A stretch of 64,000 bases of DNA, taken from the NCBI RefSeq assembly GCF_055900595.2, contig NZ_CM148325.1. One strand, written 5' to 3'. Shown one piece after another: positions 1,661 through 44,467 of the stretch (positions are counted from its first letter, which is position 1; every line of letters starts with the position of its first letter). The notes beneath the pieces were generated by a model. It was not told the origin of the DNA and did no database searches. It saw only the letters and a list, made by a program, of their open reading frames with translations. The position numbers were made by a program, and so were the translations under genes.

Positions 1661-2623
1661 ATGAGTAAGGTCTTCACAATTGGAGAAATTCTGGTTGAAA
1701 TTATGGCGAGTAAAATCGGCCAGCCATTTGATCAACCAGGTATCTGGAACGGCCCTTATCCCAGTGGTGCGCCCGCTATTTTTATCGACCAGGTGACACG
1801 TCTTGGTGTTCCGTGCGGCATCATTAGCTGTGTGGGGAATGATGGCTTTGGTGATATTAATATACATCGTCTGGCTGCTGATGGTGTGGATATCAGGGGG
1901 ATTTCAGTCTTACCTCTGGAAGCCACCGGGAGTGCCTTTGTTACTTATCATAACTCTGGCGATCGCGATTTTATTTTTAATATCAAGAATGCCGCTTGCG
2001 GTAAATTATCGGCGCAGCATGTTGATGAAAATATACTGAAAGACTGTACCCATTTTCATATTATGGGCTCATCCCTGTTTTCATTTCATATGGTAGACGC
2101 AGTAAAAAAAGCAGTAACCATCGTTAAAGCAAATGGTGGCGTTATTTCTTTCGACCCGAATATTCGTAAAGAGATGCTCGATATTCCAGAAATGCGTGAC
2201 GCCCTCCACTTTGTTCTTGAGTTAACAGATATCTATATGCCCAGCGAGGGAGAAGTGTTGCTCTTGTCGCCACACTCGACACCGGAGCGTGCAATCGCTG
2301 GTTTTCTTGAAGAAGGTGTTAAAGAGGTGATTGTGAAGCGCGGCAATCAAGGTGCCAGTTACTACTCCGCGAATGAGCAGTTTCATGTTGAGAGCTATCC
2401 GGTGGAAGAAGTTGACCCGACCGGTGCGGGAGACTGCTTTGGTGGCGCGTGGATTGCCTGCCGCCAGCTAGGGTTTGACGCCCATCGGGCATTACAATAT
2501 GCCAACGCCTGCGGTGCACTGGCGGTAACCCGACGTGGCCCAATGGAGGGAACGTCTCGCCTTGCGGAAATCGAAGCGTTCATCCAGCGCCATGACATGT
2601 CCATTCGGGAAGCAGCACAATGA
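1661..2623 (+). CDS. PfkB-family carbohydrate kinase (ribokinase/fructokinase/KdgK-like)
   Basis: 320 aa with an N-terminal FTIGEILVEI glycine-rich region and a C-terminal DPTGAGDCFGGAW anion-hole motif typical of PfkB kinases. A ribosome-binding site precedes the ATG. Confidence 0.8.
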   Translation: MSKVFTIGEILVEIMASKIGQPFDQPGIWNGPYPSGAPAIFIDQVTRLGVPCGIISCVGNDGFGDINIHRLAADGVDIRGISVLPLEATGSAFVTYHNSGDRDFIFNIKNAACGKLSAQHVDENILKDCTHFHIMGSSLFSFHMVDAVKKAVTIVKANGGVISFDPNIRKEMLDIPEMRDALHFVLELTDIYMPSEGEVLLLSPHSTPERAIAGFLEEGVKEVIVKRGNQGASYYSANEQFHVESYPVEEVDPTGAGDCFGGAWIACRQLGFDAHRALQYANACGALAVTRRGPMEGTSRLAEIEAFIQRHDMSIREAAQ

Positions 2624-3666
2624 AAAACGAAATTTGGTCGTGGATTGGCGATCTCTCGCAGGTTGCCGGAATTAAACACTATGAGTTACGCAGTGGCAGA
2701 TCAAAGGGGACAGAAGCGTTTGATGTCCGTACTGGTGCGGGATTGGCATTTACGGTGGTAAAAGATCGCGCGCTGGATATTGCATGGGCCAGCTACAAGG
2801 ACACTGCGCTCTCTTTTATCACCCCCAACGGCATTGTCGCCCCCGCTTTTTTTGAGTCTCAGGGCAACGGGTTTTTACGTAGCTTCTACGCGGGGTTACT
2901 GACTACCTGCGGACTTAGCTACATTGGCACGCCCTGTGAGGATAACGGAGAAACGCTGGGGTTACACGGGCGTTTGGCTGCGACTCCAGCAGAAGAGGTG
3001 GGGTATCGCACAGAACGGACCGACGACGGCATTGAATTTGTCATCAATGGCAAAGTACGGGAAACACGATTGTTCGGTGAAAATCTGACGCTGGAAAGGA
3101 CCATTCGCTGCCGTTATGGCGAAAATGTGCTGCGCATTGAAGACAAGGTGACTAATCATGGTTTCACCCGCCAGCCGCTGCAAATTCTTTATCACTTTAA
3201 TTACGGCTGGCCTTTATTATCGCCACAGGCAGAAATCTTGCTGTCGGCTAAAAGCGTAACGCCACGAACCCCGCATGCGGCGGAAGGGTTAACCAGTCAT
3301 CTGGAGATTTGTACCCCACAGCCCAGTTTTGACGAGCAGGTTTACTATCTCACGTTGAATAGCGACAGTCAGGGGATGAGTAAAGTTGCGCTGGTGAACG
3401 CCGAACTGGGGTGGGGAATTTACGAGAAATTCGACACCATGCAGCTACCCAACTTTATCCAGTGGAAAAATTTAGGCGCGGGTGAATATGTTATGGGGCT
3501 GGAGGTCAGCAATAGTTTTCCTGACGGTCGTGATAAAGAACGAGCGCAGGGGCGTCTGCCCTTTATAGAGCCAGGGGAAACAAAGACATACTGCTTTGAG
3601 CTGGGAATTGTTGATGGCGATGCTGAAATTAGCGCGTTGAAAGCGGAAATTGCAAGCTACCGTTAG
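2620..3666 (+). CDS. Aldose-1-epimerase-like (DUF4432-type) protein, function unknown
   Basis: 348-aa ORF whose start overlaps the kinase stop (ATGA), suggesting translational coupling. It is soluble-looking; family assignment is from overall resemblance only. Confidence 0.6.
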   Translation: MKNEIWSWIGDLSQVAGIKHYELRSGRSKGTEAFDVRTGAGLAFTVVKDRALDIAWASYKDTALSFITPNGIVAPAFFESQGNGFLRSFYAGLLTTCGLSYIGTPCEDNGETLGLHGRLAATPAEEVGYRTERTDDGIEFVINGKVRETRLFGENLTLERTIRCRYGENVLRIEDKVTNHGFTRQPLQILYHFNYGWPLLSPQAEILLSAKSVTPRTPHAAEGLTSHLEICTPQPSFDEQVYYLTLNSDSQGMSKVALVNAELGWGIYEKFDTMQLPNFIQWKNLGAGEYVMGLEVSNSFPDGRDKERAQGRLPFIEPGETKTYCFELGIVDGDAEISALKAEIASYR

Positions 3667-3757: not shown

Positions 3758-5107
3758 TTATTTTTCCTGAAGACCGAGTTTTTTCTCCAGATAGTGGATG
3801 TTAGTGCCACCATGCTGGAAGTTCTCGTCATTCATGATGCGGATCTGCAGATCAACGTTGGTTTTGATACCGTCGATGATCAGCTCCTGCAGCGCATTCT
3901 TCATGCGGGCAATCGCCACGTCACGGTTTTCACCGTAGCAAATCAGCTTACCGATCATTGAGTCATAGTACGGCGGTACGGTGTAGCCCGCGTAGATATG
4001 AGACTCCCAACGCACGCCAAAACCGCCAGGTGCATGGAAACGGGTGATTTTGCCCGGGCTTGGCAGGAAGGTGTTAGGATCCTCGGCGTTAATACGGCAT
4101 TCCACCGCATGGCCGCGAACGTGAACTTCTTCTTGCTTGATCGACAGCGGCTGACCAGCAGCAATACGCAGTTGTTCTTTGATCAGGTCAACACCGGTGA
4201 TCATTTCAGTAACCGGGTGTTCTACCTGAATACGGGTGTTCATTTCGATGAAATAGAACTCGCCGTTTTCGAACAGAAACTCGAAAGTACCTGCACCGCG
4301 ATAGCCGATATCAACACACGCTTTAGCACAACGTTCACCGATGTAGCGACGCAGTTCCGGGGTAATGCCCGGTGCTGGCGCTTCTTCGACCACTTTCTGG
4401 TGACGACGCTGCATAGAGCAGTCACGTTCCGCCAGATAGATAGCGTTGCCCTGACCGTCCGCCAGTACCTGGATCTCGACGTGGCGAGGATTTTCCAGGT
4501 ATTTCTCCATGTAAACCATGTCGTTATTGAAAGCGGCTTTCGCTTCCGCACGGGTCATGGAGATGGATTGCGCCAGTTCAGCGTCGCCGCGTACTACACG
4601 CATACCACGACCGCCGCCGCCGCCGGAGGCTTTGATAATCACCGGGTAACCAATGCGTTTTGCAATGGCGCGGTTTTTATCCATATCGTCGCCCAGCGGG
4701 CCGTCAGAACCTGGTACGCAAGGAACGCCCGCTTTTTTCATCGCCGCGATTGCTGATACTTTATCGCCCATCAGGCGAATGGTTTCGGCTTTCGGGCCGA
4801 TGAAGATAAAGCCGGAGCGTTCAACCTGCTCGGCAAAATTGGCGTTCTCGGAGAGGAAGCCGTAACCCGGATGGATTGCTACTGCGCCGGTGATTTCAGC
4901 GGCGCTGATGATTGCCGGGATGTTCAGATAACTTTTTACTGACGGAGCAGGGCCGATACAGACCGTTTCGTCTGCCAGTAATACGTGTTTTAGATCGCGA
5001 TCCGCACTGGAGTGCACAGCGACAGTCTTGATGCCCAGTTCTTTACAGGCACGAAGAATACGCAATGCAATCTCGCCGCGGTTGGCAATAACAATTTTAT
5101 CCAGCAT
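3758..5107 (-). CDS. accC: Biotin carboxylase subunit of acetyl-CoA carboxylase
   Basis: Translation from [33 protein letters not shown]... gives 449 aa, matching E. coli AccC. The six-frame ORF extends 13 codons further upstream, which I treat as an artefact. Confidence 0.97.
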
Positions 5108-41764: not shown

Positions 41765-43097
<1,333 letters not shown>

Positions 43098-43116
43098 AAC
43101 TTAGTTCGTTTTAAAG

Positions 43117-43141
43117 ATTCTGCAGACACTGTCTGCAGAAT
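43117..43141. repeat. Perfect palindrome ATTCTGCAGAC-ACT-GTCTGCAGAAT between the converging yhcH and yhcG; probable bidirectional terminator hairpin
   Basis: 11-bp perfect arms with a 3-nt loop. Same core (CAGAC-N3-GTCTG) as the three palindromes inside yhcG. Confidence 0.7.
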
Positions 43142-43156
43142 TCGAAACCGCTGAAA

Positions 43157-44284
43157 TTAACGGCGTCTATAGCCTTCCTCTAGCACCGCCTGTGTTCGAA
43201 CGAGTTCATCCGCGAGTCGTTTTTCATCAGGTAGTTGCATCTTATATTCGCTCGCCAGAACGGTGTTAGGCAAACCAGCCAGTGCATAATGCGCTTCGCC
43301 GGCTCCTTTCTCTGCACAGAGAACCAGACCGATGGGCGGATTTTCATCCGGTAGTGTCCAGTGCTCTTTGGCGTAGTTGAGATACATATTCATCTGTCCG
43401 GCATCGCTATAGCTGAATTTGCCCACTTTTAGATCGACGATTAGCAGGCAGCGTAAACGGCGGTGGAAAAACAGCAGATCGACACGAAACCAGTTGTCAT
43501 CAATGCGTAACCTTCGCTGCCGACCAACAAAGGCAAAATCATCCCCAAGTTCCAGCATGAAATCCATCAGGTGGTTGATCAGCGCCTCCTCAAAATCGGA
43601 TTCTGAGTATTCATCTTTCAATTCCAAAAATTCGAGCACAAAGGGATCGCGTATCGCCTGTTGCGGAAGAATATGCGTCTCGGCAGGGGCGTGTTGTTGC
43701 AGCATGGCTGATTTGTCATATGACAGTAGTGTCCGCTCATAAAATTGGGTCGCAATTTGCCGCTCTAGCTGGCGGACAGACCAACCACAGCGGAGCGCCT
43801 CTTTTTCATAAAAGCTGCGGGCGTCAGCGTTTTTAACGGAAAGTAGACGGACGTAGGTGGACCAGGGCAGTGGGAAGGATTTGGCAGACAGCGTCTGCCA
43901 AATCTTTGCCGATGGGAATTCTGCAGACGGTGTCTGCGGAATTCCCAATGGTGTTAATTCGCCAGACACTGTCTGGCGAATTTCAACATGTTGAAAAAAG
44001 AGGTAAAAAAGCCTCATTTGGCGTAAGTTTTTTGCAGAGAACCCACGCTTATACCTTAGACTTAAATCCTTTGATAGTCGCTTGATTAGCTGCGCACCAT
44101 ACGCAGCTCTGGCCTCACCACCTTGTTCAAATTCGACAATCCGTCGGCCAATTTCCCAGTATGTCGCGGTCATCAGCGCGTTAACGCTACGTACCGTTTC
44201 CGTTCGGGCGCTATCGACCAGATGAATAATGCCGTCGTGGATTTGCTGGTAGCCTGCTGTGGTTCCTTCTGAGAGCGATTCCAT
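43157..44284 (-). CDS. yhcG: YhcG, DUF1016/PD-(D/E)XK nuclease-family protein
   Basis: 375 aa. A C-terminal PD-(D/E)XK-like region (..VDLLFFHRRLRCLLIVDLKVGKF..) is present. Confidence 0.85.
   Translation of the reverse strand: MESLSEGTTAGYQQIHDGIIHLVDSARTETVRSVNALMTATYWEIGRRIVEFEQGGEARAAYGAQLIKRLSKDLSLRYKRGFSAKNLRQMRLFYLFFQHVEIRQTVSGELTPLGIPQTPSAEFPSAKIWQTLSAKSFPLPWSTYVRLLSVKNADARSFYEKEALRCGWSVRQLERQIATQFYERTLLSYDKSAMLQQHAPAETHILPQQAIRDPFVLEFLELKDEYSESDFEEALINHLMDFMLELGDDFAFVGRQRRLRIDDNWFRVDLLFFHRRLRCLLIVDLKVGKFSYSDAGQMNMYLNYAKEHWTLPDENPPIGLVLCAEKGAGEAHYALAGLPNTVLASEYKMQLPDEKRLADELVRTQAVLEEGYRRR
43878..43904. repeat. Intragenic palindrome A inside yhcG (GATTTGGCAGAC-AGC-GTCTGCCAAATC)
   Basis: Perfect 12-bp inverted arms around a 3-nt loop. 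Confidence 0.8.
43914..43946. repeat. Intragenic palindrome B inside yhcG (GGGAATTCTGCAGAC-GGT-GTCTGCGGAATTCCC)
   Basis: 15-bp inverted arms with one mismatch. Confidence 0.8.
43956..43982. repeat. Intragenic palindrome C inside yhcG (AATTCGCCAGAC-ACT-GTCTGGCGAATT)
   Basis: Perfect 12-bp inverted arms. Confidence 0.8.
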
Positions 44285-44467
44285 TATCTTTCCCTTTATA
44301 TGGCGCAGTGTTGAATAATGGAATCAGCTATACGCCGGGCATCTGCCGGTAACAATCCAGATGTGCGTATTACATTGGTTTTCTTAAGATTATGCGAGGC
44401 GCTTTCCAGAAAGAAAGGAGAATTTCAGCGCCGACTCTTTTCTGAGGAGGCGGCGCTGGGACAGAGC

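Follow-up and report, generated by a model that had tools for sequence, protein, structure and literature searches.

Why should the coding sequence of a bacterial nuclease gene carry a row of near-perfect palindromes? The gene in question is yhcG, which lies in a 64,000-nucleotide (nt) stretch of Escherichia coli DNA (NCBI RefSeq assembly GCF_055900595.2, contig NZ_CM148325.1; hereafter the window, meaning the whole stretch). It contains three adjacent palindromes within its reading frame, and a fourth, solo copy lies just past its stop codon. We found that these palindromes are local copies of an ancient element of ~25 bp intrinsic to YhcG/DUF1016 genes. In bacteria, archaea and phages the element lies in the stretch connecting the helical N-domain with the PD-(D/E)XK nuclease domain, immediately upstream of the LSWSH motif. 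The palindrome is a property of the whole DUF1016/YhcG family and not of E. coli yhcG alone, a point missed by an earlier note on this DNA. In our literature search, palindromes in yhcG or DUF1016 were nowhere described.

Palindromes in and beside yhcG

The earlier note had reported four palindromes with the core CAGAC-N3-GTCTG at the positions listed in Table 1, and we found all of them there. The core CAGACNNNGTCTG matched four times in the window against 0.04 matches expected, a number that none of 100 shuffles reached. The arms differ between the copies (TGG/CCA, CTG/CGG, CGC/GCG, and CTG/CAG), so that pairwise identity between copies is only 72-76%, and each copy is still self-complementary. 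The one mismatch, in unit 2, reads C.A on the sense strand and T.G on the + strand. Numbered in the order of the messenger RNA (mRNA), the three units inside the open reading frame (ORF) are in frame with a start-to-start spacing of exactly 39 nt (13 codons). They make up residues 102-136 of the protein and encode the peptides IRQTVSGEL, IPQTPSAEF, and IWQTLSAKS, with unit 3 adjoining the conserved FPLPWS motif. Tandem Repeats Finder called no tandem repeat at the array, the units being too diverged.

Selection for a hairpin had been suggested in the same note, and folding of the array as RNA indeed gave three hairpins (-65.1 kcal/mol, z = -8.5). Single units folded as single-stranded DNA reached -10.8 to -16.4 kcal/mol, with z = -5 to -9. 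The + strand at the array also contains an ORF of 71 amino acids (window 43870-44085), which reads out the mirror peptides IWQTASAKS, ILQTVSAEF, and IRQTLSGEF; it is a by-product of the palindromes and does not count as evidence of a gene.

The palindrome across the DUF1016 family

A profile search with YhcG recovered 24,659 homologous clusters (clusters at 50% identity) at E ≤ 1e-3. Using a 14-sequence alignment, we assembled a set of 80 loci that spans different species of Bacteroidota, Firmicutes, Proteobacteria, Elusimicrobia, Verrucomicrobia, Cyanobacteria, and the Nano- and Woesearchaeota (DPANN archaea). The linker was defined as the 180 nt upstream of the conserved Trp of the LSWSH motif, and control segments were taken from the same genes. 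The best linker palindrome had at least 10 of 12 pairs in 59 of the 74 complete genes, compared with 4 of 222 control segments. The same threshold was reached in 39 of the 47 genes of an independent set of viral contigs and in 2 of their 141 control segments. Hairpins with stems of at least 10 bp were concentrated in the linker, at 3.92 per kb; their density was 0.21 per kb over the remaining gene and 0.19 per kb in flanking DNA.

The family consensus is ATTnnnCAGACA-S-TGTCTGnnnAAT, i.e. ATT nnn CAG ACA S TGT CTG nnn AAT, ~25 bases long and present in one to three copies per gene; every family member examined had one to three copies or a recognisable degraded copy. Its placement is narrowly defined. 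The centre base falls at codon position 1 in 75 of 83 units, and at a fixed site six codons before the conserved Trp at least 9 of 12 pairs were found in 20 of 66 genes, compared with 0.06% for other in-frame centres. When 36 full-length homologues (34-59% identity) were aligned, the segment between FYxxY and LSWSHY was hypervariable in length and contained one to three short motifs, such as QTVSG, HTLCD, HAVRG, YTVCK, NTVCS, GAVRH, and DAARR. The residues of these motifs obey base complementarity, not chemical similarity, and units in the homologues are spaced with a period of 12-13 codons.

Several genomes possess two or more DUF1016 paralogues, each with its own, different palindrome. Such cases are the genes at 334-1338 and 2480-3493 of locus L028, those of loci L013 and L014 (from the same metagenome-assembled genome), and those of L028 and L066 (from the same contig).

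Constraint on nucleotides rather than on the peptide

Codon choice was examined in QT.S motifs picked by peptide alone (n = 41), with the codon use of the same genes as background. Serine was encoded by TCT in 39 of 41 motifs (background 18.5%, p = 1e-25), threonine by ACA in 30 of 41 (30%, p = 3e-8), and glutamine by CAG in 32 of 41 (53%, p = 1e-3), while the third base of the middle codon was G in 38 of 41. The bias was replicated in the viral set, where the corresponding serine, threonine, and glutamine codons were used in 22/22, 21/22, and 20/22 motifs. The palindrome is occasionally read in either of the remaining frames, and the peptides are then unrelated (for example PEFARQCLTN, EFATQCVANS, and ANLTDGVCQI).

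For covariation we used 23 minimal-linker genes, selected by a protein criterion only and aligned without gaps. Paired bases were found in 85.1% of cells, compared with 63.8% after shuffling and 24-41% when the alignment was slid. Double-sided changes occurred in 10 of the 12 stem pairs, and the covariation score was 0.544 versus 0.172, with none of 500 shuffles as high. Three symmetric position pairs are conserved among 75 units: ±12 as A/T (74 units), ±5 as A/T (70 units), and ±2 as C/G (62 units). Positions ±3, 4, 6, 7, 8, and 9 are variable yet complementary. Even at ±1 the bases form Watson-Crick pairs in 60 of 75 units, with AT and GC types both present, and the centre itself is occupied by C in 37 units and by G in 29, together 66 of 75. 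G.T is rare on the sense strand (8 of 825 cells), where cells without Watson-Crick pairs are mainly A.C or transversions. An assignment of the strand from these mismatch types was dropped: A.C exceeds G.T on the sense strand, but codon-position effects can produce the excess.

The constraint acts on nucleotides, and the encoded I-x-Q-T-x-S-x-E/K peptide is largely a passenger of the DNA dyad. The earlier suggestion that palindromy, rather than a set sequence, is conserved was borne out by covariation in E. coli alleles and in ~120 distant homologues, where synonymous codons keep the dyad.

Variation of the array among E. coli genomes

Alleles were surveyed in 5426 complete E. coli genomes, 4438 of which have the yhcG region. 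Unit copy number, which the earlier note had proposed to compare between alleles, varies from one to three. K-12-type alleles have all three units in frame, diverged from one another and spaced by 13 codons. The O157:H7-type allele (349 amino acids) is without exactly 78 nt, corresponding to units 2 and 3, and unit 1 is the only unit that it keeps within the ORF. Two units make up the array of the 370-amino-acid allele, and their arms, ATTCTCCAGAC/GTCTGGAGAAT and AATTGTGCAGAC/GTCTGCACAATT, differ in sequence while pairing perfectly; different perfect arms among E. coli alleles include TCTCC/GGAGA and TTGTGC/GCACAA. Identity between the window allele and the 370-amino-acid allele falls to 50-87% inside a mosaic patch around the array (Table 1) and is 95-100% elsewhere. 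The YhcG protein clusters of 349, 358, 362, 370, 375, 382, and 391 amino acids differ at the array.

Larger rearrangements also have ends here. In B-type strains, ~470 bp of unrelated DNA replaces the stretch from just past the nanQ stop codon to the exact outer edge of unit 3, and one B-type strain has an additional deletion of 52 nt between units 2 and 1. About 718 genomes, taken as B-type, fall in the 80-90% identity band of a BLAST search with the unit; the best matches listed for them are the in-gene units of a truncated yhcG. In strain HCP8S3_I1 the insertion sequence IS1 sits inside the 3' arm of unit 3, and the remainder of yhcG is lost. In E. coli, slippage, deletion, insertion, and patchy recombination concentrate at the array, which makes it a rearrangement hotspot. 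The recombination hotspot raised as one option in the earlier note fits the copy-number variants, the mosaic patch, and the breakpoints at palindrome edges.

The B-type replacement (3530-4000 of L002, from E. coli NEBExpress/B type, and 3530-4000 of L003) includes a 101-amino-acid ORF annotated as 'transposase' (WP_000639208.1), as well as a small palindrome, TCAGGTGTGACCTGA, and a 10-nt inverted repeat, GGCACAGAGC...GCTCTGTGCC. Identity of this ORF as an HUH/IS200-type transposase was rejected, with no match found in Pfam, NCBIfam, PHROG, or PADLOC.

The solo copy and the distribution of the unit

The solo palindrome lies 16 nt past the yhcG stop codon and 20 nt past that of nanQ (yhcH). Read in the yhcG frame beyond the stop it gives FQRFRILQTVSAES, which allele P0017 does in fact read through. 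The 5' flank of the solo copy is similar to that of the first unit in several alleles (FQ-x-x-E/R-I), with 11-12 of 21 nt identical. The solo copy is present in 3696 of the 5426 E. coli genomes; none was found downstream of yhcG in Salmonella, Citrobacter freundii, or Pseudocitrobacter, despite synteny after gltBD. It looks like a relic of yhcG coding sequence and not like an independent site, which the earlier note had not noticed. Judged by its sequence, it is most likely an E. coli-specific relic of the segment encoding DUF1016_N, left by a rearrangement in the E. coli lineage. As an intrinsic terminator the 43117-43141 palindrome was rejected: the terminator scan gave it no score on either strand, and its tails, AATTCGAAACC and ATCTTTAAAACG, have no T run.

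At the centre of the solo copy (window 43129; position 1550 of L001) the sense-strand base is G in the window and in the strain with the 370-amino-acid allele and C in O157:H7. The C-centre variant matched exactly in 401 genomes, and the exact matches listed include O157:H7. A flip of the dyad would produce just such a G/C transversion at the central base, though it may be a single event. Recurrent flipping of the base was dropped as an explanation, since the 401-genome variant, O157:H7 included, may go back to one event.

When a doubled unit was searched by BLAST against the E. coli genomes, a search that concerns near-identical copies only, matches came from 4430 genomes, all with yhcG, at a median of three places per genome; there were no plasmid matches. 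A dispersed repeat family was rejected on the basis of this search, its matches occurring only where yhcG is present. Of 56 signature matches in 416 kb from other taxa, 52 fall inside the DUF1016 gene as called. Two of the four matches outside trace to gene-boundary errors, and one lies in a second DUF1016 gene. On a Polaromonas contig (L029), a pair of solo units is found between a methyltransferase gene and a DUF1016 gene. The pair (AISDAASRKL and ILHALSGTS) is part of a 94-amino-acid ORF at 2077-2361 of that contig, outside any DUF1016 gene, and parallels the solo copy of E. coli.

A CRISPR array was rejected: the units are 72-76% identical, 6-14 nt apart, and translated. Programmed inversion was likewise set aside, as DUF1016 is listed only as a neighbour of inversion targets and not as a target (PMC9881135).

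The host gene, its protein, and its neighbourhood

Table 1. Features of the yhcG locus in the window. Units are numbered in mRNA order.
Feature	Position	Strand	Description
Unit 1	43956-43982	-	AATTCGCCAGAC-ACT-GTCTGGCGAATT; perfect; encodes I102-RQTVSGE-L110; third palindrome of the earlier note
Unit 2	43914-43946	-	GGGAATTCTGCAGAC-GGT-GTCTGCGGAATTCCC; 15-nt arms, one mismatch; encodes G114-IPQTPSAEF-P124
Unit 3	43878-43904	-	GATTTGGCAGAC-AGC-GTCTGCCAAATC; perfect; encodes I128-WQTLSAK-S136
Solo palindrome	43117-43141		ATTCTGCAGAC-ACT-GTCTGCAGAAT; perfect; convergent yhcH/yhcG intergenic region
Solo unit with 5' flank	43100-43156	-	contains palindrome 43117-43141; 75% identity to unit-1 region
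Hypervariable mosaic patch of yhcG	43756-44051	-	~300 bp centred on the array
yhcG coding sequence	43157-44284	-	375 amino acids; ORF, Pfam, and PADLOC matches
DUF1016_N domain	43733-44230	-	YhcG residues 19-184; Pfam E 1e-41
YhcG_C, PD-(D/E)XK nuclease domain	43205-43663	-	YhcG residues 208-360; Pfam E 1.6e-56
nanQ (yhcH)	42633-43097	+	convergent neighbour of yhcG

YhcG was predicted in silico to be a PD-(D/E)XK nuclease, with archaeal Holliday-junction resolvases as fold-recognition matches and its function not known (PMC1189080). A sequence search of the PDB found no relative among solved structures. The protein matches the PADLOC candidate defence profile PDC-S02 (E 9.3e-136; a candidate label only), and many PDC-S02 profiles cover just the N-terminal or just the C-terminal part of YhcG. 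In the AlphaFold model, with a mean predicted local distance difference test (pLDDT) of 77, an all-helical N-domain packs on the nuclease domain. The best matches of this predicted nuclease domain among solved folds are the nuclease domains of NucS/EndoMS (the nearest), Bax1, and Can2/Card1.

The earlier note had asked whether the peptide repeats fall in a linker of the predicted structure. This is so for units 1 and 2, which form a non-helical stretch of low confidence (pLDDT 40-44), and not fully so for unit 3, which overlaps a weakly predicted helix (residues 124-134) across which the pLDDT climbs from ~58 to 74.

In the window, the genes nanE-nanK-nanQ (yhcH) on the + strand converge on yhcG, with gltD and gltB beyond it. 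The upstream junction of yhcG (window 44285-44467 compared with 9552-10971 of L005) is also variable: gltD adjoins yhcG in the window, in O157, and in B-type strains, and yhcF and yhcE adjoin it in strain AR_0011. A cluster of VWA-domain, DUF5682, and AAA ATPase genes stands in place of gltD in strain 18KM2445 (4546-8049 of L003). In E. coli AR_0011 an IS629-like element (6026-9509 of L005) breaks the N-terminal part of yhcG at about window position 44050, and the element itself holds a group II intron (ltrA). Farther afield, a Collinsella contig (L085) has a Collinsella-1 small RNA (Rfam RF01700, 178.7 bits) at 4503-4695 on the - strand, ~1 kb downstream of its DUF1016 gene.

What the dyad may be for

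Judging from codon choice, covariation, and placement, we tentatively prefer the reading that the selected entity is the DNA dyad itself, a putative cis element tied to the encoded NucS/Hjc-like nuclease. The dyad would act in cis as a hairpin or cruciform-capable sequence, or as a dyad-symmetric site, and it would be linked to the gene's own presumably dimeric, structure-specific nuclease, the predicted nuclease-domain fold of which is nearest NucS/EndoMS. It might serve as a built-in binding or cleavage site or as a brake on expression, travelling with the gene in horizontal transfer. The contacts read would be the symmetric conserved bases, A/T at ±12 and ±5 and C/G at ±2. The other positions would be kept complementary by selection for the fold, aided by intrastrand template-switch correction, a known mutational process at quasipalindromes. 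The intragenic placement may have arisen because the gene often lands in foreign operons and mobile elements, where only an intragenic site is reliably co-inherited. Frequent insertion of the DUF1016/yhcG-type gene into foreign operons and mobile elements has been described (PMC9881135, PMC4316617), and DUF1016 genes sit inside restriction-modification loci (PMC9881135). We lean to DNA over mRNA because pairing reaches ±1, where a 1-nt loop cannot form, and because G.T is rare. The structured regulatory site named among the options of the earlier note may apply as well.

Several points weigh against a role of the DNA dyad. Palindromes of 25 bp are near the lower size limit for cruciform extrusion, and an RNA hairpin would explain the covariation too. 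The sense-strand excess of A.C over G.T may be a codon-position effect only, and complementarity at ±1 may be a by-product of template-switch correction rather than a sign that double-stranded DNA is read. The palindrome might also be neutral and self-correcting in a tolerant linker. Finally, the last unit overlaps a weakly predicted helix, so some constraint at the peptide level may exist.

Going further, the palindrome could be the cognate nucleic-acid partner of the YhcG nuclease, with the gene and its built-in cruciform or hairpin substrate forming one portable module kept in bacteria, archaea, and phages; we consider this rather doubtful. If true, the enzyme would sense or cut a structure in its own gene, for instance as a switch triggered by supercoiling or infection. 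Other options are that it works as a self-limiting fuse or drives gene conversion. Coupling a defence-island nuclease to a cis DNA structure in this way would be an arrangement not recognised before.

An mRNA hairpin as the selected entity is a less probable but serious competitor of the DNA dyad. One to three stem-loops at the domain boundary would restrain the expression of a potentially toxic nuclease by slowing ribosomes, by shielding the transcript from RNases or exposing it to them, or by binding YhcG. The strong RNA fold of the array (-65.1 kcal/mol, z = -8.5), the covariation, which is the classic signature of a structured RNA, and a position fixed with respect to both reading frame and domain boundary all agree with it. 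Moreover, an intragenic element remains with its gene on insertion into a foreign operon, and DUF1016 occurs in restriction-modification loci (PMC9881135). The pairing itself fits less well: sense-strand G.U is very rare, non-Watson-Crick cells being mainly A.C or transversions, and the bases at ±1 remain complementary although no RNA loop could close there. Nor did Rfam supply a family. At the array, Rfam 15 gave only a below-threshold microRNA match (mir-3913, window 43890-43970, + strand; 22.7 bits against a gathering score of 100), which is spurious and caused by the hairpins, and the linkers of 20 other loci gave no match. Homologue sequences inspected showed no conserved slippery site or internal start beside the hairpins. 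A programmed frameshift was rejected: the T TTT TTC found upstream of unit 1 in E. coli has no counterpart in those homologue sequences. At odds of much the same unlikely order, slightly below the mRNA hairpin, the palindrome has no function and perpetuates itself in a tolerant disordered linker, template switching copying arm to arm faster than point mutation acts and slippage adding or removing tandem copies. Such copying predicts complementarity through the centre (±1), and it suits the location of the extra units in the pLDDT 40-44 segment and the fast turnover of copy number and arm sequences, even within E. coli. The centre base, C or G in 66 of 75 units and differing as G versus C between solo copies of near-identical E. 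coli strains, is also as dyad flips would leave it. Under the neutral model, however, the palindrome must have persisted without selection at a single homologous site in at least 80% of the sampled genes, in bacteria, archaea, and phages alike; the family sampled comprises more than 24,000 clusters. The model also has to contend with single-unit genes, which have no donor copy, with the conservation of ±2, ±5, and ±12 across phyla, synonymous sites included, and with the fact that palindromes are normally lost through deletion, not kept.

Two further explanations are much less likely than the DNA dyad, the mRNA hairpin, or the neutral palindrome. The units would be recombination sites, similar to integron attC, at which a structure-specific recombinase or the nuclease itself swaps N- or C-terminal cassettes; we regard this as very improbable. 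It would account for the B-type replacement, which begins at the nanQ stop and ends exactly on the outer edge of unit 3, for the bracketing of the nuclease-domain half of yhcG by unit 3 and the solo copy, for the solo pair between the methyltransferase and DUF1016 genes in Polaromonas, and for the many PDC-S02 profiles matching only the N-terminal or C-terminal part of YhcG. The other end of the B-type replacement, however, is not at a palindrome, and in E. coli, Salmonella, and Citrobacter, where the gene keeps its place after gltBD in stable synteny, the locus has no linked recombinase. Solo copies are rare as well (one clear case in 416 kb), and most variants are simple products of slippage or deletion. 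Hardest to credit is the in-frame miniature mobile element named among the options of the earlier note, here inserted in yhcG in the manner of the Rickettsia palindromic elements (RPEs). The unit resembles RPEs in being palindromic, translated in frame, and located in an unstructured segment (PMC2996958), and it has a mirror ORF on the opposite strand. However, it is not dispersed: E. coli matches occur only in genomes with yhcG, 52 of 56 matches elsewhere are in DUF1016 genes, and no further copies exist elsewhere in the window. The unit is found only in or immediately beside DUF1016 genes, at one homologous position and mostly in one frame (75 of 83 units) across the family, and it measures 25 bp against the 100-150 bp of RPEs.

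Significance

YhcG/DUF1016 is a very large nuclease family whose genes are frequent in defence islands and restriction-modification loci as well as in prophages and conjugative elements. A dyad inside its coding sequence that overrides codon choice and peptide sequence across domains of life offers a concrete handle on the biology of the family, as it predicts a nucleic-acid ligand or cis control. The dyad also provides a clear natural example of how protein coding and nucleic-acid structure conflict and reach a compromise. The dyad accounts for the structural polymorphism of E. coli yhcG, and annotators should expect length variation and truncations at the palindrome site of DUF1016 genes.

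Comparison with known palindromic elements

Quasipalindromes are known template-switch hotspots in E. coli (Ripley; Lovett laboratory), where switching makes the arms of imperfect inverted repeats identical. Such hotspots would account for compensatory changes and for complementarity through the centre. The double changes and the ±1 pairing seen here are compatible with mutations of this kind. The process is mutational and works on arbitrary sequences, which leaves retention at one site of one family across domains of life unexplained.

Repetitive extragenic palindromic (REP) sequences and bacterial interspersed mosaic elements (BIMEs), with their REP-associated tyrosine transposases (RAYTs), are likewise covarying hairpins of 20-40 bp in small clusters with an associated nuclease-type gene (PMC3733652). 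REPs lie outside genes, carry GTAG or CGTC as a tag, and reach tens to hundreds of copies in a genome (PMC3733652). In the window, three of the four units lie inside the yhcG ORF, the ends are (A)ATT/AAT(T) without a GTAG or CGTC tag, and the copies are few. Integron attC sites are imperfect palindromes of 57-141 bp with extrahelical bases and RYYYAAC/GTTRRRY cores, which lie downstream of cassettes and need the IntI integrase. Like the yhcG units, they put structure over sequence, with few conserved outer bases and variable complementary inner positions, and they are linked to cassette exchange. The units are near-perfect dyads of 25-33 bp without RYYYAAC/GTTRRRY cores. No intI gene is annotated in the E. 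coli loci, for which no search aimed at a neighbouring intI was made.

The closest parallels are palindromes within coding sequences. RPEs (Ogata et al. 2000, cited in PMC2996958; similar elements occur in Wolbachia and Methanocaldococcus) are also in-frame palindromes in non-structured segments and share with the yhcG units a mirror coding potential on the opposite strand. They are selfish insertions of 100-150 bp across many unrelated genes of one genome, whereas the yhcG unit is 25 bp long and confined to one site of one family. Palindromic amphipathic repeat coding elements (PARCELs; PMC2996958) are tandem intragenic repeats of variable number too, with dyad-symmetric DNA and common horizontal spread. 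They consist of amphipathic DUF285/TIGR02167 repeats of 25 residues (75 nt), the dyads of which are imperfect and vary in phase, and most occur in proteins of the membrane or surface. The yhcG units, by contrast, have a period of 12-13 codons and near-perfect dyads at a fixed phase in a nuclease gene, and no DUF285 was detected in YhcG, where Pfam finds DUF1016_N and YhcG_C only. Coding palindromes in the mitochondria of Nematomorpha (PMC6649704) resemble them as inverted repeats in functional genes in which protein and nucleic-acid structure are both kept. Those palindromes reach 284 bp, occur in many genes of one organelle genome, and encode conserved protein regions in both arms, while the yhcG dyad is short, occupies one position of one prokaryotic gene family, and encodes a poorly conserved peptide. 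The yhcG dyad thus belongs to a loose class of coding palindromes together with RPEs, PARCELs, and those of Nematomorpha and lacks the defining features of each; were it the enzyme's own substrate, it would stand still further from known systems.

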